DNA of 64,000 nt, taken from NCBI GenBank assembly GCA_043822665.1, contig JBDRBM010000024.1:2056-66055 (forward strand). Reading direction: 5' to 3'. The position numbers and the translations under genes were made by a program. The notes under the pieces are model-generated. The model did no database searches, had not been told where the DNA came from, and saw only the letters and a program-made list of their open reading frames with translations. Source of the stretch: Candidatus Omnitrophota bacterium. GTDB taxonomy: Bacteria; Omnitrophota; Gorgyraeia; Gorgyraeales; Gorgyraeaceae. This document shows positions 9,640-63,314 of the stretch, piece after piece (position 1 is the stretch's first letter; each line of letters opens with the position of its first letter).

Positions 9640-11535
9640 TTAGCCGCGCAGTTGTCTTTCCGCGTCAATTATATCCCGGTTTATAAGGTGGATGGTATTC
9701 CTAACCCTGTTTTTAAAATCTATCGACGCAGGCGTGTCAAGCATTTCACGCAGTATCTGGATAGCCATGCGAAAGGTCCTTATTATTTCTCCCTCATCAT
9801 CGTCTGTATATTGCAATAGCTTATCAAATTCTTCATTTCTTATCCAGGCCTCAATGCAAGTGGTAAGGTGGTAATAATAGACTTTGCTTAGGGCCTTTAC
9901 CCCGAACTTTTTTTCAATTTTATGTATACCGCTTAACATATTGTCAGTAATATCGTTTAATGACCTGGCAGGCCTGGAGAGTTTTGGCAATGTGCTGATC
10001 TTTCTGGGTTCAAAGACCAGCGCGGTTGAAAGTATTGCCAATTCTCTCTCAGAAAGTTTTTCAAGAAGGCCCTGTTCATAGAGCTCGGAGAGGGGAAGTT
10101 CATACCCATATATCTTTGCCGCGAAGCGCCCTTTTTCAGTAAGTTTATTTTTTCCGATGTAACCAAGTTCTTTCAGAAGTTTTACTTTATTATATAGAAG
10201 CTCAAGGGCCTTTTTTCTAAACTCTGCCCTTGCCTGAAAGTAGTGGAAGGAAAGAGGGTATATGTCATATAGTCTTTCATTGTATCTCTCGTAGAGGTTC
10301 AGTATGGTTGCGTAGGAGGCATTGAACCTGCTTTTTACCTTTTCAGGAGCGCCGTAAATGACCTTGTGGAGTTCAGGGAACGAAATCCAGCGAGGGTTGA
10401 CGCGGCTATACACGAAACCTTCTTTATCTATGCCGCGGCGGCCGGCCCTGCCAGCCATCTGAAAGAAGTCGCGTGTCTTGAGCGTGGCAAAGGATTTGCC
10501 GTAGAATTTCCTCAATTCGTCGAATATGACCGAACGCGCCGGCATATTTATGCCGAGGGCAAATGTCTCAGTGGTGAATATTATTTTTATGAGCCTGCTT
10601 GTGAATAGTCTCTCCACAACCTCTTTTAGAGTGGGGAGCATCCCCGCATGGTGATAGGCAACGCCTTTTTCGATTAAAGGCAGAATGAGCTGAGCGCTTT
10701 TATCGTTTACGAGTTCAAACCTCTCACAGAGTTCATTAAAGAGAGTTACTATCCTTGCCTTTTCCTGCTGGTTTAGAAAATCAAATCTCATCATTTCTCC
10801 TGCCAGATACTCAGATCTTTTTCTGCCAAAGACAAAATATATACAGGGAAGCTTGTCTGTTTCGGAAAGGTGCCTTATGAGCAAAGTGGGCTTGTTTGGT
10901 TTTCCGTAATAGCGGAAAGATTGTTTTTTATACGCTATTGAACAGACCTTCTGCAGGTTATCTATTATCTCACCATGGACTTGGTAAAAGAAATGTAGAG
11001 GCACAGGCCGCTTGTCCTCTTTTATAACTTTCAGGGGAAGCTTGTGTATTGACTGGAGCCATGAACATAGTTCGTCTATATTCGGTATCGTGGCGGAAAG
11101 GGCGAGCATTTTCATGTGGTGCGGCAGAAATATCAGAGACTCTTCCCATACACTGCCGCGCTCGTAGTCATCCAGGTAATGGATCTCGTCAAATATTATC
11201 CATGAATAGTTTTCAAGGTTTGACTTTTCTTCCAATACCTTATTGCGGAATATCTCCGTAGTCATTATTAAGACAGACGCGGAAGGATTTATGCTTACGT
11301 CACCGGTAAGTATGCCTATCCTGTCAGGGAATCCTTCCTGAAAATCGCGGAATTTCTGGTTTGAGAGCGCCTTTATGGGAGCGGTGTATATTACCTTTGT
11401 GCCTTTTTCCAGGCAGTCATTTATGACATATTCAGCTATCGCGGTCTTTCCCGCCCCGGTAGGCGCGGAAACCATTACAGAATATCCCGCGTTTATATAA
11501 TCGATAGCCTTTTTCTGAAATGCGTCATATATCAT
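9640..11535 (-). CDS. Superfamily-2 DEAD/DEAH-box helicase, Ski2/HelY-like
   Basis: SAPTGAGKT (motif I), FDEIHYLDD (motif II), LSATIPN (III), AYHHAGM, QMAGRAGRRG (VI). Confidence 0.85.
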   Translation of the reverse strand: MIYDAFQKKAIDYINAGYSVMVSAPTGAGKTAIAEYVINDCLEKGTKVIYTAPIKALSNQKFRDFQEGFPDRIGILTGDVSINPSASVLIMTTEIFRNKVLEEKSNLENYSWIIFDEIHYLDDYERGSVWEESLIFLPHHMKMLALSATIPNIDELCSWLQSIHKLPLKVIKEDKRPVPLHFFYQVHGEIIDNLQKVCSIAYKKQSFRYYGKPNKPTLLIRHLSETDKLPCIYFVFGRKRSEYLAGEMMRFDFLNQQEKARIVTLFNELCERFELVNDKSAQLILPLIEKGVAYHHAGMLPTLKEVVERLFTSRLIKIIFTTETFALGINMPARSVIFDELRKFYGKSFATLKTRDFFQMAGRAGRRGIDKEGFVYSRVNPRWISFPELHKVIYGAPEKVKSRFNASYATILNLYERYNERLYDIYPLSFHYFQARAEFRKKALELLYNKVKLLKELGYIGKNKLTEKGRFAAKIYGYELPLSELYEQGLLEKLSERELAILSTALVFEPRKISTLPKLSRPARSLNDITDNMLSGIHKIEKKFGVKALSKVYYYHLTTCIEAWIRNEEFDKLLQYTDDDEGEIIRTFRMAIQILREMLDTPASIDFKNRVRNTIHLINRDIIDAERQLRG

Positions 11536-12283: not shown

Positions 12284-14080
12284 TTGAAAATAAAGATTCA
12301 TTATAAGATTACTATAATCTTTGCGATAATCATAGCAGGCACTCTTCTAGGCATATATTTATATCTTAATAATACCCTTCGGGAATATACATACCAGAGA
12401 ATCAAGGCAAACCTTACCAGGGAAACGTCTTTTGCCAAATCTTTCATAGAAGAAAAATTCGTAGACACGGCCGATCTTAAATACTTGAATGGCATAGCAG
12501 ATAAGATCGGCAGGAGCCTGTCGTTGCGCGCTACTATTATAAGCCTTGACGGCAGGGTATTGGGAGATTCGGTGCTTAATGAGAAAGGAGTTGAAGAGGT
12601 TGAAAATCACTTGCATAGGCCTGAAATTCAAGAAGCCCTGGACTACGGGACAGGAGAGGCGAGAAGATTCTCTTCGACTGTGAAAAAAAACATGCTCTAT
12701 ATAGCGTCTACTTTCGGCAGTCCAGAGCCCCTGGGTATAATACGCTTATCTATGCCTCTTTCTGAGATAGAACTCCTGTCCGGCCATTTAAAGCGGATGC
12801 TTATAGCATTGCTTTTTCTCGCGTTTATCTTTGCCATGATAATCAGTTTTATAGCTTCGGCTATGATCTCAAGGCCGATAAAACAAATGTCCCTGATAGC
12901 GAATTCCGTAGCCAGCGGGGATTTCTCGAAGAGTATTTCTGTTTCAACCAATGACGAGATAGAGGACCTTGCGCATTCATTTAATTATATGTCACAAGAG
13001 ATATGCTCGAGAATTGAAGAGATTTCATCCAACAGGCTGAGATTGGAAACAGTTCTTTTGAGCATGTTTGAAGGCGTGATAGTGCTTGATGCTAAAGGAG
13101 CAATAGCCCTGATGAATCAGACCCTCAGGGATTTATTAGTTCTTGGAGGGGAACCAGTTGGGAAAAAGCCTATAGAGGTCATACGTAATGTTGAAGTCCA
13201 GGAGATCGCGGAAAAGACCTTGACGTTAGATAGGGGAGTAGAGACGAAAGAGGTCAAGGTCTTGTTTCCAAAGGAAAAGATTTTACTGGTGCATGGAACG
13301 CCTGTCAGGAGAGATGAAAGGGTGGACGGTGCTGTTTTGGTGTTCCATGATATTACTGAATTGAGGCGGTTCGAGATGATCCGCCAGGATTTTGTGGCAA
13401 ATGTTTCCCATGAACTGAGGACACCAGTTGCCAGTATCAAGGGTTACGCGGAGACCCTGTTGGAAGGGGCATTGGAAGATAAAAAGAATGCGCATGATTT
13501 TCTGGAGATAATCCATTCGGATTCTGAGCGCCTTGCCAAACTTATAGATGATATCCTGGAATTATCCAGGATAGAATCAGGCGCGCTTAAGATGATGCTA
13601 AAACCTTACCGCGTAGGACCTATTGTCAAAAGGGCGTTATCAAGCATTAAAAAACAGGTCAGCGCTAAATCTTTAAACATGGAAATGGATATCCCTGAGA
13701 CTTTGCCGGATATCCTGGCGGACGAGGAACAGCTTTTGCGAGTATTTTTAAATCTAATGGACAACGCGGTAAAATATAACAAAGATAAAGGAAAGATAGC
13801 TGTATCAGCATCGGAAAAAGGCGGTTTCATAGAGATACGTGTTTCTGATACAGGAATAGGTATCCCGGAAAAGGACCTGCCCAGGCTATTTGAGAGGTTC
13901 TACCGTGTTGATAAGGCGCGCTCACGGGAGTTAGGCGGCACAGGCCTTGGCCTTTCCATAGTCAAGCATATTGTCCTGTCTCACGGCGGCGAGGTCTCTG
14001 TCAAAAGCGCCCTTGACCAAGGCTCCACCTTCAGTTTTACCATCCCCAAGGCTCAGGAAAATTCCTCTACTGTAAAATAA
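12284..14080 (+). CDS. phoR: PhoR-like sensor histidine kinase (TM, HAMP, PAS, HisKA, HATPase)
   Basis: FVANVSHELRTP (H-box), NLMDNAVKY (N), DTGIGI (G1), GGTGLGLSIV (G2). TTG start. Confidence 0.85.
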   Translation: MKIKIHYKITIIFAIIIAGTLLGIYLYLNNTLREYTYQRIKANLTRETSFAKSFIEEKFVDTADLKYLNGIADKIGRSLSLRATIISLDGRVLGDSVLNEKGVEEVENHLHRPEIQEALDYGTGEARRFSSTVKKNMLYIASTFGSPEPLGIIRLSMPLSEIELLSGHLKRMLIALLFLAFIFAMIISFIASAMISRPIKQMSLIANSVASGDFSKSISVSTNDEIEDLAHSFNYMSQEICSRIEEISSNRLRLETVLLSMFEGVIVLDAKGAIALMNQTLRDLLVLGGEPVGKKPIEVIRNVEVQEIAEKTLTLDRGVETKEVKVLFPKEKILLVHGTPVRRDERVDGAVLVFHDITELRRFEMIRQDFVANVSHELRTPVASIKGYAETLLEGALEDKKNAHDFLEIIHSDSERLAKLIDDILELSRIESGALKMMLKPYRVGPIVKRALSSIKKQVSAKSLNMEMDIPETLPDILADEEQLLRVFLNLMDNAVKYNKDKGKIAVSASEKGGFIEIRVSDTGIGIPEKDLPRLFERFYRVDKARSRELGGTGLGLSIVKHIVLSHGGEVSVKSALDQGSTFSFTIPKAQENSSTVK

Positions 14081-25815: not shown

Positions 25816-25915
25816 AATGACAAATGTCAAAGCACAAATCCAAATAGCAAAACTAAATGTTTTGAAATTTGAATTTTGGATTTATTTTGTGCTTTGAATT
25901 TTGTCATTTGTCATT
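25816..25915. repeat. AT-rich imperfect inverted repeat between the TPM and lemA genes
   Basis: The left arm AATGACAAATGTCAAAGCACAAATCCAAA (25816-25844) pairs with TTTGGATTTATTTTGTGCTTTGAATTTTGTCATTTGTCATT (25875-25915). It contains TGTCATT twice and the AAATCCA heptamer also arrayed in pyrK. Confidence 0.7.
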
Positions 25916-25922
25916 TTAAATT

Positions 25923-26714
25923 CTACCAGCTTCCCGATGCTCCGCCGCCTCCTGACATACCTCCGCCAAAACCGCCAAACCCTCCGCCAAAGCCTCCTGA
26001 ATTTCCCCTGTATCCTCCGCCATACCAGTAGCCCCCGCGCCTCCTGTAAGAACCCGGTATAAATAAGTACCACCAAAAAAATCCCATCCGCAGGCTGACA
26101 AAAAGTATTATAATAAAAAGCGTAAACAGGAAATTTAAAAGCAATTCTAATGGTGTCGGCTCTTTAGGCAGAGGCACGTTAATCGGCAATTTATCCAGTT
26201 CACTCAACTCTATATTATATTCCTTGGCAACTAATTTGGCAATGCCTACAGTACCTTTTATAACACCTGTATTAAAATCACCTTTTTTAAAAGAGGGGGT
26301 TATATAATCTTCTATTACTATCTTCGCGAGCGCGTCAGGTATCGCGCCTTCAAGGCCATAACCTACCTCTATGCGTATGGCCTTGTCTTTTATCGCGATA
26401 AGGAGAAGGACGCCGTTATCTTTTCCTTTCTGGCCGATGCCCCATTTTTCAAAAAGCTTCACGGCATACGTTTCTATATCAAGAGGCCTTGTTGTGTCGA
26501 TTGTTAGTATGGCTACTTGAGCAGTTGTCTTTTGCTCGAGTTCATTTATGAGAGTCGATAACCTTGCTTTAGTATCATAGGAGAGTATATTAGCATAGTC
26601 GTTTACGTAGCCGGTATAATCCGGAAAATTTTCCGCGCCAGAGACTTCCGGCCGGGAAAACAGGATAAGCAATGCGGTGATAAAGATGCTAAAACAAAGC
26701 GATTTATCCTTCAT
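25923..26714 (-). CDS. TPM-domain (YgcG-like) membrane protein with a Gly-rich tail
   Basis: Signal/TM segment, YVNDYANILS...QVAILTI (TPM domain), TM segment, C-terminal GGYWYGGGYRGNSGGFGGGFGGFGGG. A typical LemA partner. Confidence 0.8.
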   Translation of the reverse strand: MKDKSLCFSIFITALLILFSRPEVSGAENFPDYTGYVNDYANILSYDTKARLSTLINELEQKTTAQVAILTIDTTRPLDIETYAVKLFEKWGIGQKGKDNGVLLLIAIKDKAIRIEVGYGLEGAIPDALAKIVIEDYITPSFKKGDFNTGVIKGTVGIAKLVAKEYNIELSELDKLPINVPLPKEPTPLELLLNFLFTLFIIILFVSLRMGFFWWYLFIPGSYRRRGGYWYGGGYRGNSGGFGGGFGGFGGGMSGGGGASGSW

Positions 26715-57279: not shown

Positions 57280-57302
57280 ATATACAGAAAATAGAACCTT
57301 TA

Positions 57303-57447
57303 AACCAGCCCTGAGAGGCTGGTAAGGGAGCATAAAGTGGAAACTATAAAGCTAAAAGTTGTCCCGAACCTTTTGTTCAATTCGATTGGTAAGAAATCAT
57401 CATTTCTTAAACATATTGAATATCAAAAAGGTGCGGGATTTTTTTTA
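57303..57447 (+). promoter_or_regulatory. PyrR-binding hairpin plus attenuator terminator (pyr leader)
   Basis: ACCAGCCCUGAGAGGCUGGUAAGGGAG (57303-57329) matches the PyrR binding-loop core ..GAGAGGCUG.(A/U)AAGG. Downstream, the stem TCCCGAACCTTTTG (57362-57375) pairs with CAAAAAGGTGCGGGA (57424-57438), followed by T8. Confidence 0.7.
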
Positions 57448-57467
57448 TCTAGCGCCAGGAGGTTAAG

Positions 57468-58013
57468 GTGTCAGTCAGAAGAGCTACTATATTAACAAAA
57501 GAAGAGATAAGCCGGGCGGTCACGAGGATAAGCCATGAAATACTCGAAAATAACAAAGGCGCCGGAGGCCTCGCTATAATTGGCATAAGGAGCCGGGGTT
57601 ATTTTCTTGCCGAGAGGATCGCGGCATTGATTAATCAAATAGACGGCGTAGAATTACCGGTAGGCGCGCTTGATATAACTTTATACAGGGATGATTTAAG
57701 CGTTATCTCCAAACAGCCAGTAGTACACAAAACAGACATAGATTTTGATATAGAGGATAAAAATGTAATCCTTGTGGATGATGTCTTGTGCACCGGAAGG
57801 ACTATACGCTGTGCCTTGGACGCGCTTATAGATTTTGGAAGGCCCAGGACAATACAGCTCGCTGTGCTTATAGACAGGGGCCACCGCGAACTTCCCATAA
57901 GGGCTGATTATGTGGGTAAAAACCTGCCTACATCTAAAATAGAGGCAGTGCAGGTTAGACTTGAAGAGATAGATGGTGAGGACAGCGTTTTTATAGAGAC
58001 AGAAAATGGTTAA
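57468..58013 (+). CDS. pyrR: Bifunctional pyr operon regulator / uracil phosphoribosyltransferase
   Basis: GTG start after [27 protein letters not shown] (PRPP motif), [20 protein letters not shown]. Confidence 0.9.
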
Positions 58014-58959
58014 ACCCGCCAAGAAAAAACCAAGATGGTTTCATAAGGATTTATTAGGCTTAGAGTATCTCTCCAAAGAAGATATAGAGCTGTTGCTTGA
58101 TACAGCAGATTCATTCATAGAGATATTAGAGAGGACCATCAAAAAAGTCCCTGCCCTGCGCGGTAAAACAGTAGTGAATCTATTCTACGAACCTTCCACA
58201 AGGACAAGGGTATCTTTTGAGATAGCCGCCAAGAGGCTGTCCGCGGATGTAATCAATATCGCGACCGAGACATCGAGCGTTAGGAAAGGCGAGACGCTCA
58301 ATGATACTGGCAAAAACATAGAGGCGCTGAAGGCAGATATTATAATAGTCAGGCACAATTGTTCTGGCGCCGCAACAATGCTTGCCAGGAATGTAAATAT
58401 CAGCGTTGTTAACGCGGGCGACGGGTGGCACGAACATCCTACGCAAGGCCTGCTGGACATCTTCACCTTAAAAAAGAAATTTGGACACATAGAAGGCCTT
58501 AATGTCACTATAGTAGGCGACATTGCGCATTCGAGGGTGGCGCGTTCCAATATATGGGGCCTGACTAAACTTGGAGCAAATATTACACTGTGCGCGCCTG
58601 GTATATTAATACCGCCAGGCATAGAAAAAACAGGCGTAAGCGTGACAAGTGATATAGATTCCGCGCTCTATGACGCTGACGCGGTAAATGTATTAAGGAT
58701 GCAGTTTGAACGCGACGAAAAAACAGCCTTCCCCAAACAGTTAGAATACTTTAAGAAATTCGGCATAACCGAAGAGCGGCTCAAAAAAGCCAGGAAGAAT
58801 ATTATAGTAATGCACCCTGGGCCTATAAATAGAGGCATTGAGATATCAAGCGCGGTAGCGGATGGCGCAAATTCTGTAATTTTGGAACAAGTTACAAATG
58901 GCATTGCGGTCAGGATGGCGGTTCTTTTCTGGCTGTCTCAAGTAAGGACGCGGTTATGA
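58006..58959 (+). CDS. pyrB: Aspartate carbamoyltransferase catalytic subunit
   Basis: [33 protein letters not shown]. Confidence 0.95.
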
Positions 58960-60248
58960 AGATATTAATTAAAAACGGAATTGTAGTGGACCCTTCTAAT
59001 AATATAAATGGCGTAAGAGATATTCTTGTAGCCGGCGGAAAGATTTCCAAGGTGGAGAAAGAGATTAAAGTAGACGCGGATACAGTAATAGACGCCAAAG
59101 ACAAAATAATAATGCCTGGTATTGTGGACATGCATGTGCATTTAAGAGAACCAGGAAGAGAGGATAAGGAAACAGTTGCGAGCGGCACAATAGCCGCGGC
59201 AAAAGGCGGGGTTACCACAGTCCTTGCCATGCCCAACACCATACCCGCGATCGATTGCGCTAAAAACGCGCGCATCCTCAGGGATATTATAAAAAGGACG
59301 GCAAATATAGATGTTTTGATTAACGGTACGATTACCATAGACAGGCTCGGCAAAGAATTATGTGACATAGAATCATTAAAGGAACAAGGTATAATTGCCA
59401 TTACTGATGACGGGTCTTCTGTAGAAGATAAAGGATTAATGCTCAAAGCGCTCGGAAACGCAAAGAAACATAAGGTCCTTGTAATATGCCACTGCGAAGA
59501 TAAGAACCTTTCTAATAATGGAGTAGTAAATCTTGGTTTTACCTCTACGAGGCTCGGCTTAAGAGGGGTTTCTAATGAATCAGAATATAAAAGGGTTGAG
59601 CGTGATATACAATTGGCGGAACGTTCAGGCGCGGCTATCCATATTGCCCATGTAAGTTGTAAAGAATCAGTAGAGATAATCAGAAAGGCAAAAAAAATCG
59701 GCATAAAAGTAACGGCAGAGACAGCCCCCCATTATTTTATTTTGGACGAAGAAGCAGTGCTTGATTATAACACCAACATGAAGATAAACCCGCCTTTAAG
59801 GCACAGAGAAGATGTTGAGGCCATAAAACAAGGGCTCAAGGATGGCACCATAGACGCGATAGCCTCTGACCACGCGCCTCATACAGAAAATGAAAAAGAG
59901 ATAGAGTTTGAATATGCGGAATCAGGTACTATTGGTTTGGAGACAGGGCTTTCAGCAGGCATTACAGAGTTGATAGATACAGGGTTATTGACATGGAGCG
60001 AGTTGGCAGAGAAGATGTGTCTTAACCCTGCTAAGATTCTCGGCGTAGATAAAGGCGCTTTAGGGGAAGGCCGGGAAGCGGATATTATTATTATCTCGCC
60101 GGAAAAGGAATGGGTAGTAAAAAAGAAAGATTTTGTGTCCAGATCAAAGAATTCCGTATTTCTGGGCAGGAAGCTTAAGGGCGCGGTAGAGCATACCATT
60201 TACAAGGGCCGTGTAATCTATAGCGCGCAAAAAGGAGTCACTGAGTGA
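58956..60248 (+). CDS. pyrC: Dihydroorotase
   Basis: PGIVDMHVHLREPG, GGVTT, IAHVS, SDHAPH. Confidence 0.95.
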   Translation: MKILIKNGIVVDPSNNINGVRDILVAGGKISKVEKEIKVDADTVIDAKDKIIMPGIVDMHVHLREPGREDKETVASGTIAAAKGGVTTVLAMPNTIPAIDCAKNARILRDIIKRTANIDVLINGTITIDRLGKELCDIESLKEQGIIAITDDGSSVEDKGLMLKALGNAKKHKVLVICHCEDKNLSNNGVVNLGFTSTRLGLRGVSNESEYKRVERDIQLAERSGAAIHIAHVSCKESVEIIRKAKKIGIKVTAETAPHYFILDEEAVLDYNTNMKINPPLRHREDVEAIKQGLKDGTIDAIASDHAPHTENEKEIEFEYAESGTIGLETGLSAGITELIDTGLLTWSELAEKMCLNPAKILGVDKGALGEGREADIIIISPEKEWVVKKKDFVSRSKNSVFLGRKLKGAVEHTIYKGRVIYSAQKGVTE

Positions 60249-61477
60249 GGTTCGTCGCTGATTTTCACATTCATTCTAAATACAGCCGCGCCACAAGTCC
60301 GCAAATGGAAGTCAAAACCTTATCCGAGTTCGCGAAATTAAAAGGGATATCGCTTCTTGGCACAGGAGATTTTACCCACCACCTCTGGCTTGAGGAATTA
60401 AAAGACGCGCTGAAAGACTCGGGCAGCGGCTTCTTCGAGTATAATAATGTAAATTTTATACTTACCGGAGAAATATCGAGTATTTATTCCAAGGCAGGCA
60501 AGGTCAGGAAGATTCACAATATAGTATTTGCCCCGAGCTTTGACATTGTCGATAAAATAAATTCCGCGCTTTCAGGGTATGGAAACCTCGCGTCTGACGG
60601 AAGGCCTATTATCGGCATAGACGCGAAAGACCTGGCAGAGGTCTTATTCGGAATCAGTAAGGAGATATTTCTGGTGCCTGGCCATATCTGGACACCGTGG
60701 TTTTCTCTCTTTGGTTCCAAATCAGGTTTTGATTCAATAGAGGAGTGTTTTGAAGAATACGCCAAAGACATCTATGCCCTGGAAACAGGGCTTTCATCAG
60801 ACCCTGGCATGAACTGGCGCTGGAGCAAGCTTGACAGGTTCAGCCTGATATCTAATTCAGATTCACACAGTCCGCAGAAAATAGGCAGAGAAGCGAATAT
60901 ATTTGATACAGAAATGAGTTATAAAGCCGTAATAGACGCCCTTAAGTCAAAAGACAATAAGCAATTTCTCTCTACAATTGAATTTTTTCCGGAAGAGGGT
61001 AAGTATCATTTTGACGGACACAGGAACTGTAAACTACGTTTAAGTCCGGTTGAGACAAAAAAGAATAAAAATATCTGTCCTGTCTGCGGAAAACCCATTA
61101 CAGTAGGCGTAATGAACAGGGTCAATGAACTTGCTGACAGGCCTGAGGGGTTTGAGCCTGAGAACAGGATCCCGTACCAGAGGATGATACCTCTGGCAGA
61201 GATAATCGCGGGTGTCCTGGGCGTGGGATATAGCTCCAAGGCAGTAGGGAGTGAGTATCGCGCTATAATACCTCGGTTCGGGACAGAACTTGAGGTCCTG
61301 ACAAAGATAAAAGACGAAGAACTTCTCAGTAAGGTACCGCGGAAGATAGCAAAGGCTATAATAAACGTGAGAAAAGGAAATGTAAATATATTACCCGGGT
61401 ATGATGGCGAATATGGTAAGATAGAGATATTAAAAAAAGAAGAAGCTGTTGGCGAAAAACAGATGGATCTATTTTGA
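60245..61477 (+). CDS. Endonuclease Q-like PHP-domain nuclease with a zinc ribbon
   Basis: ADFHIHSKYSRA, LLGTGDFTH, SNSDSHSP, GKYHFDGH, CPVCGKPITVGVMNRV, PLAEIIAGVLG, PGYDGEYGKI. These parallel Pyrococcus/Bacillus EndoQ blocks as I recall them. Confidence 0.75.
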   Translation: MRFVADFHIHSKYSRATSPQMEVKTLSEFAKLKGISLLGTGDFTHHLWLEELKDALKDSGSGFFEYNNVNFILTGEISSIYSKAGKVRKIHNIVFAPSFDIVDKINSALSGYGNLASDGRPIIGIDAKDLAEVLFGISKEIFLVPGHIWTPWFSLFGSKSGFDSIEECFEEYAKDIYALETGLSSDPGMNWRWSKLDRFSLISNSDSHSPQKIGREANIFDTEMSYKAVIDALKSKDNKQFLSTIEFFPEEGKYHFDGHRNCKLRLSPVETKKNKNICPVCGKPITVGVMNRVNELADRPEGFEPENRIPYQRMIPLAEIIAGVLGVGYSSKAVGSEYRAIIPRFGTELEVLTKIKDEELLSKVPRKIAKAIINVRKGNVNILPGYDGEYGKIEILKKEEAVGEKQMDLF

Positions 61478-61495
61478 GCCTTCAGCCGTCACAAT

Positions 61496-61535
61496 CCACA
61501 ATGTAGGTGACCCTTAAGGGTCACCTACATTGTGG
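61496..61535. repeat. Family-B palindrome, copy 4 (inside the pyr operon)
   Basis: CCACAATGTAGGTGACCCTTAAGGGTCACCTACATTGTGG, followed by ATAACTTTTGG and preceded by CACAATC-CACAATG. Confidence 0.9.
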
Positions 61536-61552
61536 ATAACTTTTGGACAAAA

Positions 61553-62374
61553 ATGAAAGATATTAAAGCAAATATATTATCCAATAAAGAAATTGCCCCG
61601 GGATATTTTAAGATGGCCCTGGACGCGCCCTATATAGCCAAAAACGCAAAGCCCGGGCAGTTTGTCCAGGTGAGATGCAGTGATGGATTTGACCCGCTTT
61701 TAAGGCGGCCGCTTAGTATACATCGGGTATCGGGTATCGGGGATCGGGTATCGGGTATCGATATTCTATACGAGGTGATTGGCAAGGGGACAGAAGTCTT
61801 GTCTAGAAAAAAAGCCGGCGAGACCATAGATATTTTAGGTCCATTAGGCAATGGATTTACTTTATCACCATCCACCATCCACCATCCACCATCCACCATA
61901 ATAATTGCCGGCGGCATTGGAGTCGCGCCGCTAATTTTTCTTGCAGAAAAATTAGCGGAAATCCAAAATCCAAAATCCAAAATCCAAAATATAGTTCTAT
62001 TAGGCGCCAGGACAAAGAGCCTGATTTTATGCGAAAAAGATTTCAAGAAAACAGGAGCCAAAGTTTATATTGCCACTGATGATGGAAGTAAAGGATATAA
62101 GGGCTTAGTAACGAAGTTATTTGAAAAAGTTTTACGATCCACGATCCACGATCCACGATCCACGGTATGCGCATGCGGGCCGCGGCCAATGCTCGAATCT
62201 ATTGCCAGGATGTGCAATGAAAAAGGTGTAGAATGTGAGATTTTGCTCGAAGAAAAAATGGCGTGTGGTGTCGGCGCATGTCTTGGATGCGCTGTAAAGG
62301 TCAGGGATAATGGGTATAAATTAGCCTGTAAAGACGGCCCAGTATTCAAGGCAAACACCATAATATGGCCTTAA
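61553..62374 (+). CDS. pyrK: Dihydroorotate dehydrogenase (class 1B) electron-transfer subunit
   Basis: GQFVQV, RRPLSI (FAD motif), GPLGNGF, AGGIGVAPL, ACGPRPM, C-terminal CGVGACLGCAV [2Fe-2S] motif. I prefer ATG 61553. The track GTG at 61532 lies inside the palindrome. Confidence 0.9.
   Translation: MKDIKANILSNKEIAPGYFKMALDAPYIAKNAKPGQFVQVRCSDGFDPLLRRPLSIHRVSGIGDRVSGIDILYEVIGKGTEVLSRKKAGETIDILGPLGNGFTLSPSTIHHPPSTIIIAGGIGVAPLIFLAEKLAEIQNPKSKIQNIVLLGARTKSLILCEKDFKKTGAKVYIATDDGSKGYKGLVTKLFEKVLRSTIHDPRSTVCACGPRPMLESIARMCNEKGVECEILLEEKMACGVGACLGCAVKVRDNGYKLACKDGPVFKANTIIWP
61722..61760 (+). repeat. Heptanucleotide tandem array ATCGGGT x5.5 inside pyrK
   Basis: atcgggt atcgggt atcgggg atcgggt atcgggt atcg. 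It encodes ...HRVSGIGDRVSGID..., directly after RRPLSI. Confidence 0.95.
61866..61900 (+). repeat. Heptanucleotide tandem array CACCATC x5 inside pyrK
   Basis: caccatc x4 plus caccata. It encodes SPSTIHHPPSTI, between GPLGNGF and AGGIGVAPL. Confidence 0.95.
61959..61990 (+). repeat. Heptanucleotide tandem array AAATCCA x4.5 inside pyrK
   Basis: aaatcca x4 plus aaat. It encodes EIQNPKSKIQNI. Confidence 0.95.
62134..62165 (+). repeat. Heptanucleotide tandem array ACGATCC x4.5 inside pyrK
   Basis: acgatcc x4 plus acgg. It encodes LRSTIHDPRSTV, directly before CACGPRPM. Confidence 0.95.
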
Positions 62375-62432: not shown

Positions 62433-63314
62433 TTGGCAGTTCTTATAGGTAAGATTAAATTAAAAAACCCAGTGATGGTTGCTTCAGGTACCTTTGGATA
62501 CGCAAAAGAATTTGAAGGCCTGGTTGACCTGAAGAAACTCGGGGCGATTATTACAAAGACCATTACTTTAAACCCAAGAGAAGGCAATCCAATGCCCAGG
62601 ATATGCGAGACAGCATCCGGTATGCTCAATGCAATAGGCCTGCAAAACGAGGGCATAGATAATTTTATTAAAGAAAAGATGCCCTATCTTTCAAAGATAG
62701 GAGTACCTCTTATAGTAAGTATATCAGGAGATAGTATTAAGGAGTTTTGCGAACTATCAAAACGGCTTGATAAAGAAAAAGATGTGGCAGGGATAGAGCT
62801 GAATATATCGTGCCCTAATATCAGAAGACAGAAGACAGAGGACAGAAGACAGAGGTTGATTTCTCAAGATAAAGATGCAACGTATGAAGTGACAAAGAGT
62901 GTTAGAAAAGCAACGGATAAGATGCTCATTACAAAACTCTCGCCAAATGTAACTGATATTGTGGAGATTGCAAAATCCGCATGCAATGGAGGCGCAGACG
63001 CAGTGAGTTTGGTAAACACCTTTTTGGGTATGGCAATAGATATTGAGACTGGAAGGCCAAAGCTCGGCAATATTACGGGTGGTTTGAGCGGCCCTTGCAT
63101 TAAGCCGATAGCATTGCGCATGGTCTGGGAGGTTGCAAGAAATATTAAAAGGCCTATAATAGGAATAGGCGGTATAATGACAGCAGAAGATGCCATTGAA
63201 TTTTTGCTTGCAGGCGCACAGGCAGTGCAGGTAGGCACAGCGAATTTTATCGAACCCGGAACCTGCGAGAAAATAATAAAAGGGATAGAGCTATGGAAAA
63301 AGAAAAGATCATAG
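62433..63314 (+). CDS. pyrD: Dihydroorotate dehydrogenase (class 1B) catalytic subunit
   Basis: TTG start. NPVMVASGTFG, ITKTIT, NAIGLQN, GIELNISCPN (catalytic Cys), KLSPNVTDI, NTF, GGLSGP, GIGGI. Confidence 0.9.
   Translation: MAVLIGKIKLKNPVMVASGTFGYAKEFEGLVDLKKLGAIITKTITLNPREGNPMPRICETASGMLNAIGLQNEGIDNFIKEKMPYLSKIGVPLIVSISGDSIKEFCELSKRLDKEKDVAGIELNISCPNIRRQKTEDRRQRLISQDKDATYEVTKSVRKATDKMLITKLSPNVTDIVEIAKSACNGGADAVSLVNTFLGMAIDIETGRPKLGNITGGLSGPCIKPIALRMVWEVARNIKRPIIGIGGIMTAEDAIEFLLAGAQAVQVGTANFIEPGTCEKIIKGIELWKKKRS
62822..62856 (+). repeat. Heptanucleotide tandem array CAGAAGA x5 inside pyrD
   Basis: cagaaga cagaaga cagagga cagaaga cagaggt. It encodes RRQKTEDRRQR, immediately after NISCPNI. 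Confidence 0.95.

Follow-up and report, generated by a model that had tools for sequence, protein, structure and literature searches.

Tandem arrays of seven-nucleotide units are the most over-represented class of long simple sequence repeats (SSRs) in bacteria, an excess for which the footprint of the polymerase has been tentatively proposed as the cause (Mrazek et al. 2007, cited in PMC4692102 and PMC4679880). Here we analyse one such heptamer array inside pyrD, the gene for the catalytic subunit of dihydroorotate dehydrogenase (DHOD), in a Candidatus Omnitrophota genome (assembly GCA_043822665.1, contig JBDRBM010000024.1). The stretch analysed, positions 2,056 to 66,055 of the forward strand, spans 64,000 nucleotides and is called the window below. 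Its array and those of its relatives resemble the dispersed heptamers described in other bacteria, including the cyanobacterial short tandemly repeated repetitive (STRR) sequences, the GGGNATC repeats of Xanthomonas and Nostoc and the TAACTGA repeats of Beggiatoaceae (PMC4692102, PMC4679880). Those repeats have a period of seven, a modal length of about four units (in Xanthomonas), a unit that is re-used within the genome and an origin tentatively attributed to polymerase slippage; here, period 7 likewise dominates, units stand head to tail in about four or more copies, and sites within a genome share units more often than chance would give. However, the described dispersed heptamers are mainly intergenic, occur less often than expected in coding sequence and use one or a few units per genome, whereas the arrays studied here lie inside conserved enzymes, at fixed loops and with many different units, and hardly occur outside pyrK and pyrD in the window's clade.

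A coding precedent is neuO of the Escherichia coli K1 prophage CUS-3, in which a variable-number tandem repeat (VNTR) of 5'-AAGACTC-3' permits a full-length protein only at copy numbers that are multiples of three; tracts range from 3 to 53 units and 65.6% of genomes are OFF (PMC13001214). The two cases share a 7-nt unit within coding sequence that is read in three frames, a peptide period of seven residues and, probably, an origin by strand slippage. In contrast to neuO, an accessory surface-modification gene, the gene considered here encodes a housekeeping enzyme; its tract of 4.7 units is internal and falls in the catalytic loop, and all 67 arrays of pyrK and pyrD that could be tested keep the reading frame. 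The closest characterized enzyme is DHOD B of Lactococcus lactis (PyrDb/PyrK; PDB 1EP1-3, 5KSW, 5UE9), which has in common with the window enzyme its family, fold, NISCPN motif, adjacent PyrK with an Fe-S cysteine cluster and operon context. The two differ in the loop that follows the motif, which reads NVKHGGQAFGTDPE in L. lactis and NIKRQGLIAQDKD, without GG and one residue shorter, in the Omnitrophota baseline. Window PyrD has seven residues more than this baseline, and its PyrK carries four further inserts of seven residues each. We found no report of such arrays in Omnitrophota in the searchable literature; heptamer SSR expansion is known, but no description of its recurrent, site-specific and gene-concentrated occurrence in a core enzyme, including the catalytic loop, was found there.

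The array in the catalytic loop of PyrD

The features of pyrD that matter here are as follows.

62433..63314, + strand: pyrD, encoding the catalytic subunit of a class 1B DHOD; 293 aa, counted from a TTG at 62433 (the NCBI call, P0001, starts at Met15)
62802..62819, + strand: NISCPN catalytic motif (the same letters align in L. lactis DHOD B), with catalytic Cys127 encoded at 62811-62813
62822..62855, + strand: heptamer array, 4.7-4.9 units, register AGAAGAC from 62823, residues 131-141
Excess within the array: 21 nt, or three units, or 7 aa, over a putative ancestral tip of 12 nt and 1.7 units (base-level comparison with the relatives L161 and L162/L164)

The class 1B identity proposed by an earlier, sequence-only reading of the window is borne out by profile scores (NCBIfam NF005574, 392 bits against a cut-off of 269; TIGR01037, 339.4 bits against 270), by the match to L. 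lactis DHOD B (PDB 1ep1_A, E=6.3e-77) and by an AlphaFold2 model built on the clade alignment (mean predicted local distance difference test score (pLDDT) 75.9), the best Foldseek match of which is 1ep3_A at a TM score of 0.85. The catalytic residue is the Cys of S-C-P-N, as in class 1, not the Ser of class 2, and S126, C127, P128 and N129 are invariant across an alignment of 46 Omnitrophota PyrDs. The class 1B partner, PyrK, is encoded adjacently.

The array consists of four complete units (CAGAAGA, CAGAAGA, CAGAGGA and CAGAAGA) and a 6-nt partial one (CAGAGG), followed by ttg. The sequence-only reading had described five CAGAAGA units with one CAGAGGA among them; the array stands, but the A>G variant is present in two of its units (numbers three and five), and the last of these is incomplete. 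Tandem Repeats Finder (TRF) assigned it a period of 7, with 4.6 copies at 92% matches. A search with the 34-nt consensus, allowing up to 3 mismatches, gave a single hit in the window and no hit in 100 dinucleotide-preserving shuffles; the array is real and non-random. Translation in the pyrD frame confirmed that it encodes RRQKTEDRRQR directly after NISCPNI: residues R131-RQKTEDRRQ-R141 (62823-62855) follow N124-I-S-C127-P-N129-I130 (62802-62822) without a gap.

The sequence-only reading also held that the array replaces the conserved GG-containing loop of class 1B enzymes, exchanging about 5 residues for about 11. Neither part of this survived comparison with relatives. In the HMMER alignment to L. 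lactis (NISCPNVKHG------GQAFGTDPE), window PyrD has a net insertion of six residues, six and not seven because the baseline loop of its clade is one residue shorter. That baseline is NISCPN-I-K-R-Q-G-LIAQD, with an array-free tip of K-R-Q-G and without GG. A GG within 8 residues after SCPN occurs in 0 of 31 close-clade PyrDs, with or without an array, compared with 86 of 107 distant PyrDs; as GG is absent clade-wide, array-free members included, the array did not replace a GG loop. From these alignments, the loss of GG in this lineage appears to predate the array, and the GG loop is not a universal defining feature of class 1B PyrD.

What the array did change emerged at base level. L161, an array-free relative that is 80% identical, has at the tip ATA, one AAGAGAC, AAGGG and tta, which is 1.7 units. 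L162 has ATA, two AAGAGAC, two AAGGGAC, AAGGG and tta, which is 4.7 units, and L164 also has 4.7. In the same register the window reads ATC, two AGAAGAC, AGAGGAC, AGAAGAC, AGAGG and ttg, again 4.7 units, and thus differs from L161 by exactly +21 nt and +7 aa, four tip residues having become 11. A second pair of relatives, L086 with GGCTCAAGGC and L081 with GCTCAAG x4.7, shows the same difference. GG-loop replacement was rejected both on this gain of 21 nt on a 12-nt tip and on the clade-wide absence of GG. We also considered a single 21-nt duplication in place of heptamer periodicity and rejected it for the clear cases: in the window, L081, L085 and L002, identity at period 7 amounts to 0.79-0.90; some +7-aa inserts (KGEGLRV, KGGGFSV) are too decayed for the two to be told apart.

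In the PyrD model, residues 128-139 form a loop with pLDDT below 50, between a strand (118-124) and a helix (147-160). In class 1 DHODs the catalytic loop acts as a gate to the active site and is flexible or disordered; in class 1A enzymes it (Ser130-Gln139) opens and closes over the active site, and residues 135-138 are often invisible in crystals (PMC12481576). Because of the low pLDDT at 128-139 and the mobility of the equivalent class 1A loop, the insert is predicted to sit at the mobile tip of the gating loop that bears the catalytic Cys, in agreement with its earlier placement in a flexible loop beside that residue. The length of this region is otherwise nearly fixed: of 106 distant PyrDs, which come from many phyla, 103 have 31-33 residues between SCPN and KLSP, as against an excess of +4 to +52 residues in 10 of 27 close-clade PyrDs. 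The DHOD loop that bears the proton-abstracting Cys, of nearly fixed length across phyla, thus tolerates +7 to about +52 residues in many lineages under purifying selection, and such insertions amount to a natural mutagenesis series for loop gating.

An insertion this close to the catalytic Cys had raised the concern that the enzyme is dead, which was not borne out by sequence comparison. All clade-invariant columns are intact in window PyrD (among them K42, N66, S126-C127-P128-N129, K168, N195, G216/G217 and G246/G247), and the gene contains no frameshifts or stops. Against five relatives, the proportion of nonsynonymous differences (pN) is 0.11-0.16 for pyrD, compared with 0.17-0.20 for pyrC and 0.14-0.19 for pyrF, placing pyrD among the most conserved genes of the neighbourhood; in pairs without synonymous saturation, the ratio of nonsynonymous to synonymous rates (dN/dS) is 0.06-0.13 for pyrD and 0.12-0.24 for pyrK. 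Because the invariant residues are kept, dN/dS is low, the operon is intact and insertions at this very point are common in related lineages (about 40% of them carry one), PyrD is probably active. No second pyrD was found within the 64-kb window.

Heptamer arrays at fixed loops of PyrK and PyrD

Four further arrays lie in pyrK, immediately upstream of pyrD.

61553..62374, + strand: pyrK, electron-transfer subunit with flavin adenine dinucleotide (FAD) and [2Fe-2S]; ATG at 61553 by homology, in an open reading frame (ORF) that opens at 61532
61722..61760, + strand: site A array, after RRPLSIH, ATCGGGT x5.6 (TRF), encoding VSGIGDRVSGI
61866..61899, + strand: site B array, after GPLGNGFTL, CACCATC x4.9 (TRF, 100% matches), encoding STIHHPPSTI
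61959..61990, + strand: site C array, after LAEKLA, AAATCCA x4.6 (TRF, 100% matches), encoding EIQNPKSKIQN
62134..62164, + strand: site D array, before VCACGP, ACGATCC x4.4 (TRF, 100% matches), encoding RSTIHDPRST

PyrK aligns with PDB 5ksw_B (E=5.9e-35), including its Cys cluster (MACGVGACLGC...C). The four NCBIfam PyrK equivalogs match it, but each falls short of its cut-off (206.7 against 314 in one case, 199.4 against 219 in another), plausibly owing to its four 7-aa array inserts. Arrays may therefore degrade the automated annotation of uncultured lineages. Beyond the four arrays in pyrK and the one in pyrD, TRF found no period-7 array of at least 3.5 copies in the 64 kb. No two of the five arrays in the window have the same unit, and ATCCA is common to three of the units.

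To place these arrays, we retrieved at least 164 loci around PyrD homologues (L numbers) and ran TRF on all of them; about 20 kb was sampled per genome. The relatives compared here are those among the matches listed, and distant loci go by the taxon labels that their records give them (Nitrospirota, 'Planctomycetia' and others). Among tandem arrays of at least 3.5 copies, period 7 accounts for 26 of 27 in 27 close loci and for 129 of 204 in 134 distant ones; periods 6 and 9, which keep the frame, contribute only 16 arrays each. Array lengths peak at 31-32 nt. In the close clade, pyrK holds 29 arrays (1.27 per kb), pyrD 6 (0.22 per kb) and all other DNA 3 in 316 kb (0.009 per kb), so that 35 of 38 lie within pyrK or pyrD (binomial P of 2e-27, with events that are not all independent). 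The suggestion that the pyrD array is a fifth one in a local pyrK-pyrD hotspot thus holds. In the distant loci the densities are 0.48 per kb for pyrK, 0.035 per kb for pyrD and 0.057 per kb for the rest. The units do not form one sequence family: among 157 arrays, most canonical units occur only once or twice.

At the PyrD loop, the segment from SCPN to (L/V)(I/V)(A/S)Q is 5 aa long in 64 of 119 listed Omnitrophota homologues (I-K-R-Q-G, I-K-C-E-G, I-R-A-Q-G and the like) and 12 aa long, or +7, in 32; the rest are longer or irregular, including three segments of 13 aa and one of 40 aa, which may be read as +7 on a 6-aa tip and as +35, respectively. In all, 50 of the 119 carry an insertion, and at least 15 different 7-periodic peptides occupy this one site, among them TNHEPRT-TNHE, RAQGSRL-KAQG, KGQGTRD-KGQG, KRPKTKD-QRPK and IHHPSSS x5. 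The window's nearest neighbours among the listed relatives have either a different array (IRTQSAKRKAQS) or none (IRSEG). Fitch parsimony on a loop-masked neighbour-joining tree gave about 22 gains and losses at the PyrD loop, a rough count inflated by tree error.

PyrK arrays are found at only five positions in close and distant lineages, all between conserved elements: after RRPFSIHRV (site A, n=7), after GPLGNGFSLP (B, n=8), after LAEELK (C, n=7), before VIYACGP (D, n=19, the commonest) and in a loop of the Fe-S domain between CAVKTK and YK (E, n=9). Site A is occupied by other units in L091, L094, L098, L100, L127 and L131, and in L161 by a decayed orthologous TATCGGG array; site B is used in L081, L084, L088, L091, L094, L097, L099 and L156, and site C in L003, L005, L013, L122, L127, L131 and L138. 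Units vary by lineage, and some apparent baseline sequences are decayed arrays (RLKAKGSRLEG, PRAMNGEPRA). Across the lineages compared, these sequences show the PyrD loop and the five fixed PyrK loops as sites that have repeatedly gained, lost and exchanged heptamer arrays. Heptamer SSRs, usually seen as intergenic curiosities or phase switches, are here a recurrent source of 7-residue insertions at fixed loops.

At pyrK site E of L156, from a distant lineage (56% PyrD identity), the peptide QKTEDRRQK is encoded by the unit CAGAAGA, identical to the window's PyrD array; either convergence on an A/G-rich unit or transfer could account for this. In L138 (1453-1509) and L139 (93-149), GAGCCGC x8.1 lies exactly between pyrK and pyrD within a continuous 617-aa frame that spans both, and the array may have fused PyrK and PyrD into one polypeptide with itself as the linker. 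In L127, L131, L159, L125, L042 and L147, too, arrays stand where pyrK meets pyrD or at the N-terminus of PyrD.

More elaborate structures were found in the PyrD loop of a few relatives. In L088 (about 9900-10100; P0057), two tandem copies of an element of about 44 nt (CCCCATGCGAGAATCAAAGATTTCGTACGGGGCAGGCAAGGGAC), an imperfect palindrome, lie within an AAGGGAC array; P0040 has one copy of this element at the same loop, and in L104 (P0059) two copies of GCCTGTCCGCCGAAGCCTTGGCGAAGGCGGAAGGGACGATGGAC are nested in the array. These hairpin-like elements of 40-45 nt are translated in frame, and the loop insertions reach +31 and +52 aa. In Nostoc, small dispersed repeats are reported to lie inside tandem heptamer arrays (Elhai et al. 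2008, Genome Res 18:1484), and the elements of L088, P0040 and L104 would resemble these by analogy; the window itself has no nested element, however, and those of its relatives differ in being translated in frame inside an enzyme.

Distant array-rich lineages have in-frame arrays in other genes as well, namely those for CarA, CarB (four loci), PyrF, Ddl (three loci), RecJ, CobA-HemD, PurB, a UbiA-type prenyltransferase, KorA/KorC, a radical-SAM protein and a helicase. Such arrays occur in L003, L154, L156, L159, L122, L127, L022, L076, L043 and L129, and L141 has arrays in two large ORFs without a family match. As arrays occur in Ddl, RecJ, PurB and others, the phenomenon is not restricted to DHOD; the idea that they are specific to pyrimidine genes was dropped in view of those in Ddl, RecJ, CobA-HemD, PurB, UbiA and KorA/C.

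Probable slippage and tolerance, and the alternatives

We regard as probable that the array arose by slipped-strand expansion of heptamers, filtered by reading frame and loop tolerance, and that PyrD and PyrK are still functional. The ancestral tip would have been four codons close to AGA AGA CAG AGG (K-R-Q-G in relatives), the 12 nt of which make up 1.7 units of period 7. Slipped-strand mispairing on such a short 7-nt proto-repeat would create an array, heptamers being the long SSRs that replication in bacteria produces most readily, and the addition of three units (21 nt) would give 4.7 units and seven extra residues, hydrophilic and charged. Selection would then act as a filter passing only three-unit changes, stop-free hydrophilic units and solvent-exposed, length-tolerant loops. 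As only changes of three units keep the frame, coding arrays are expected at 1.7, 4.7 or 7.7 units; 72% of coding arrays have 4.x copies, compared with 50% of non-coding ones. As each unit is read in all three frames, only stop-free, T-poor units encoding hydrophilic residues are expected to survive. The sense strand of coding units contains 15% T against a background of 24%, such that few of the seven codons have T in second position, and the residues S, R, T, P, G, K and Q abound in the array peptides. On this account the array would be a tolerated, fast-evolving appendage on the gating loop, neither the replacement of a catalytic element nor an on/off switch. This quantised dynamic of +3 units, read in three frames, leaves 7-aa scars that are recognizable even after decay.

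Several observations weigh against slippage and tolerance as the whole explanation. In the close clade, array density exceeds that of the roughly 316 kb of flanks about 140-fold in pyrK and about 25-fold in pyrD, and these flanks include intergenic DNA free of any frame constraint. Units are shared within genomes: at least 6 of 7 unit bases agree in 11 of 102 within-genome site pairs, compared with 2.2% between genomes (0 of 5,000 permutations), as with AAGGGAC at three sites of L088, GCCGTAC at two sites of L013, and ATCCACC and ATCCACG in the window, a sharing that purely local seeds do not predict. Coding arrays also depart less from exact repetition than non-coding arrays do, with 88% matches compared with 82% (p=0.0009) and 27 of 109 perfect compared with 3 of 40. 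This points to recent or continuing turnover, with a possible contribution from detection bias, as short arrays escape detection once they decay. We had considered that coding arrays might be trapped, and hence older, because loss of a single unit would be lethal; they proved instead to be the more perfect class, with the same detection bias possible. Last, the unit pattern of L162 (A A G G G', the last unit partial) needs more than one unit-level step and therefore either out-of-frame intermediates or a multi-unit event. Gene-specific enrichment, unit sharing, the youth of coding arrays and the L162 pattern are not explained by plain slippage plus tolerance and leave room for selection or a directed process. 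The enrichment in pyrK, of about 100-fold, and unit sharing within genomes also make the origin of bacterial heptamer repeats directly testable at a defined locus.

The alternative that draws on these observations is selected or targeted hypervariability, in which arrays are favoured in, or directed to, PyrK and PyrD. Selection could act on tuned kinetics, partner contacts or escape from inhibitors; direction could come from ectopic array conversion or a micro-mobile repeat. We consider it unlikely. It would accommodate the extreme enrichment over flanks that include intergenic DNA, the unit sharing beyond chance and the younger, more perfect coding arrays, together with the recurrence of hits at the same six loops in lineages whose PyrD identity is only 52-58% and the hairpin-like elements nested in the PyrD-site array of L088 and L104. 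However, a single site may hold basic, acidic, Gly-rich or His/Pro/Ser-rich peptides, an extreme diversity with no specific function apparent, and arrays also occur in CarA, CarB, PyrF, Ddl, RecJ, PurB, UbiA and KorA of distant lineages. The window's five sites show no common flanking target motif, no candidate enzyme was found, and adjacency to endoQ, the gene for an Endonuclease Q homologue in the operon, is not required. The boldest form of this idea, which we think quite unlikely, is that the six loops of PyrK and PyrD are 'programmed' to be hypervariable in Omnitrophota and some metagenome-assembled genomes labelled Nitrospirota, the gating loop of PyrD being one of them and the arrays being made or copied by a directed process, such as conversion between arrays or a micro-mobile repeat able to carry nested hairpin elements too, and perhaps kept perfect by selection for evolvability. 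If true, programmed loops would constitute a bacterial mechanism that diversifies the loops of a core metabolic enzyme.

A contingency locus is very unlikely. Here the arrays would be neuO-like phase switches of de novo pyrimidine synthesis, working by gain or loss of single units, and the attraction of the idea is a unit length within coding sequence that is not a multiple of three, several near-perfect arrays per operon, the unusual perfection of coding arrays and the precedent of neuO AAGACTC (PMC13001214). Yet none of the 67 pyrK and pyrD arrays, drawn from independent assemblies, is out of frame, against 65.6% of neuO genomes that are OFF, and PyrD loop length classes differ by +7 aa only. 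The tracts are short, 4-5 units compared with 3-53 in neuO (in the window, pyrD has 4.7 units at 92% and three pyrK arrays are perfect, all with fewer than 6 units), and many arrays have decayed to ordinary 7-aa inserts such as RLKAKGSRLEG and PRAMNGEPRA. The targets are, moreover, housekeeping enzymes under strong purifying selection.

We judge it highly improbable that the array disabled the catalytic loop and that pyrD, with pyrK, is decaying under cover of salvage or another DHOD. Some Omnitrophota have been proposed to be host-dependent, the catalytic Cys is four residues away from the insertion, the loop concerned has a fixed length in 103 of 106 distant PyrDs, and PyrK scores fall under the equivalog cut-offs; set against this are the lack of frameshifts and stops, the retained invariant residues, the low dN/dS (0.05-0.13), the complete pyr operon and the absence of a second pyrD within 64 kb. 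An assembly or sequencing artefact is scarcely credible: the exact window PyrD is known from a single contig only, but the array, at 34 nt, is shorter than a read and in frame, analogous arrays occur at the PyrD site in many independent assemblies (JGI, ENA, NCBI and Logan), and one array-bearing protein is present on 10 contigs while another represents 22 member sequences.

The pyrimidine operon and other repeats

The window's operon comprises a complete de novo pyrimidine set in the order pyrR-pyrB-pyrC-(endoQ)-pyrK-pyrD-pyrF; relatives have the same gene order, followed by pyrE. The features upstream of pyrK are as follows.

57293-57448, + strand: candidate PyrR binding site (RF00515), 44.9 bits against a gathering score of 54, E=0.0012, full model length
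57468-58013: pyrR-like phosphoribosyltransferase gene
58006-58959: pyrB
58956-60248: pyrC
60245-61477, + strand: Endonuclease Q homologue between pyrC and pyrK, matching PfuEndoQ (5zb8_A, E=3e-61), with a PHP domain; TIGR00375 below cut-off

The candidate PyrR site lies just upstream of the pyrR-like gene and pyrB, which suggests that this Omnitrophota operon may be under PyrR attenuation control. The product of endoQ is a relative of a nuclease that cuts at deoxyuridine and hypoxanthine, and the position of its gene is kept in the close relatives L161-L163. A link between the arrays and this gene was considered and set aside, as 14 array-bearing loci have no endoQ upstream of pyrK; the array load of a locus is not correlated with endoQ adjacency.

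Repeats were also seen outside genes of the pyrK-pyrD pair. Between pyrB and pyrC of L161 (3835-3923), the reverse-complementary arrays ATAAGCC x4.7 and GCTTATG x3.9 face one another and could form a long hairpin, and a further intergenic array lies at 13866-13892 of the same locus. In the window, a segment of about 140 bp (25860-25997) combines TTTTGAA x3.4, TTTGTCA x2.4, a 14-mer x3.4 and CCGCCAAACCCT x2.2.

Between the endoQ stop and the pyrK start (61492-61541), the window has a perfect 20-bp stem with a 4-nt loop (minimum free energy -39.4 kcal/mol, z=-7.5). An Rfam microRNA match on this hairpin (E=0.66) was discarded as chance. Only a short U-run follows the hairpin, which is absent in L161 (where the gap is 28 nt), and it could be a terminator, a stabilizer or an element like the repetitive extragenic palindromic (REP) sequences.

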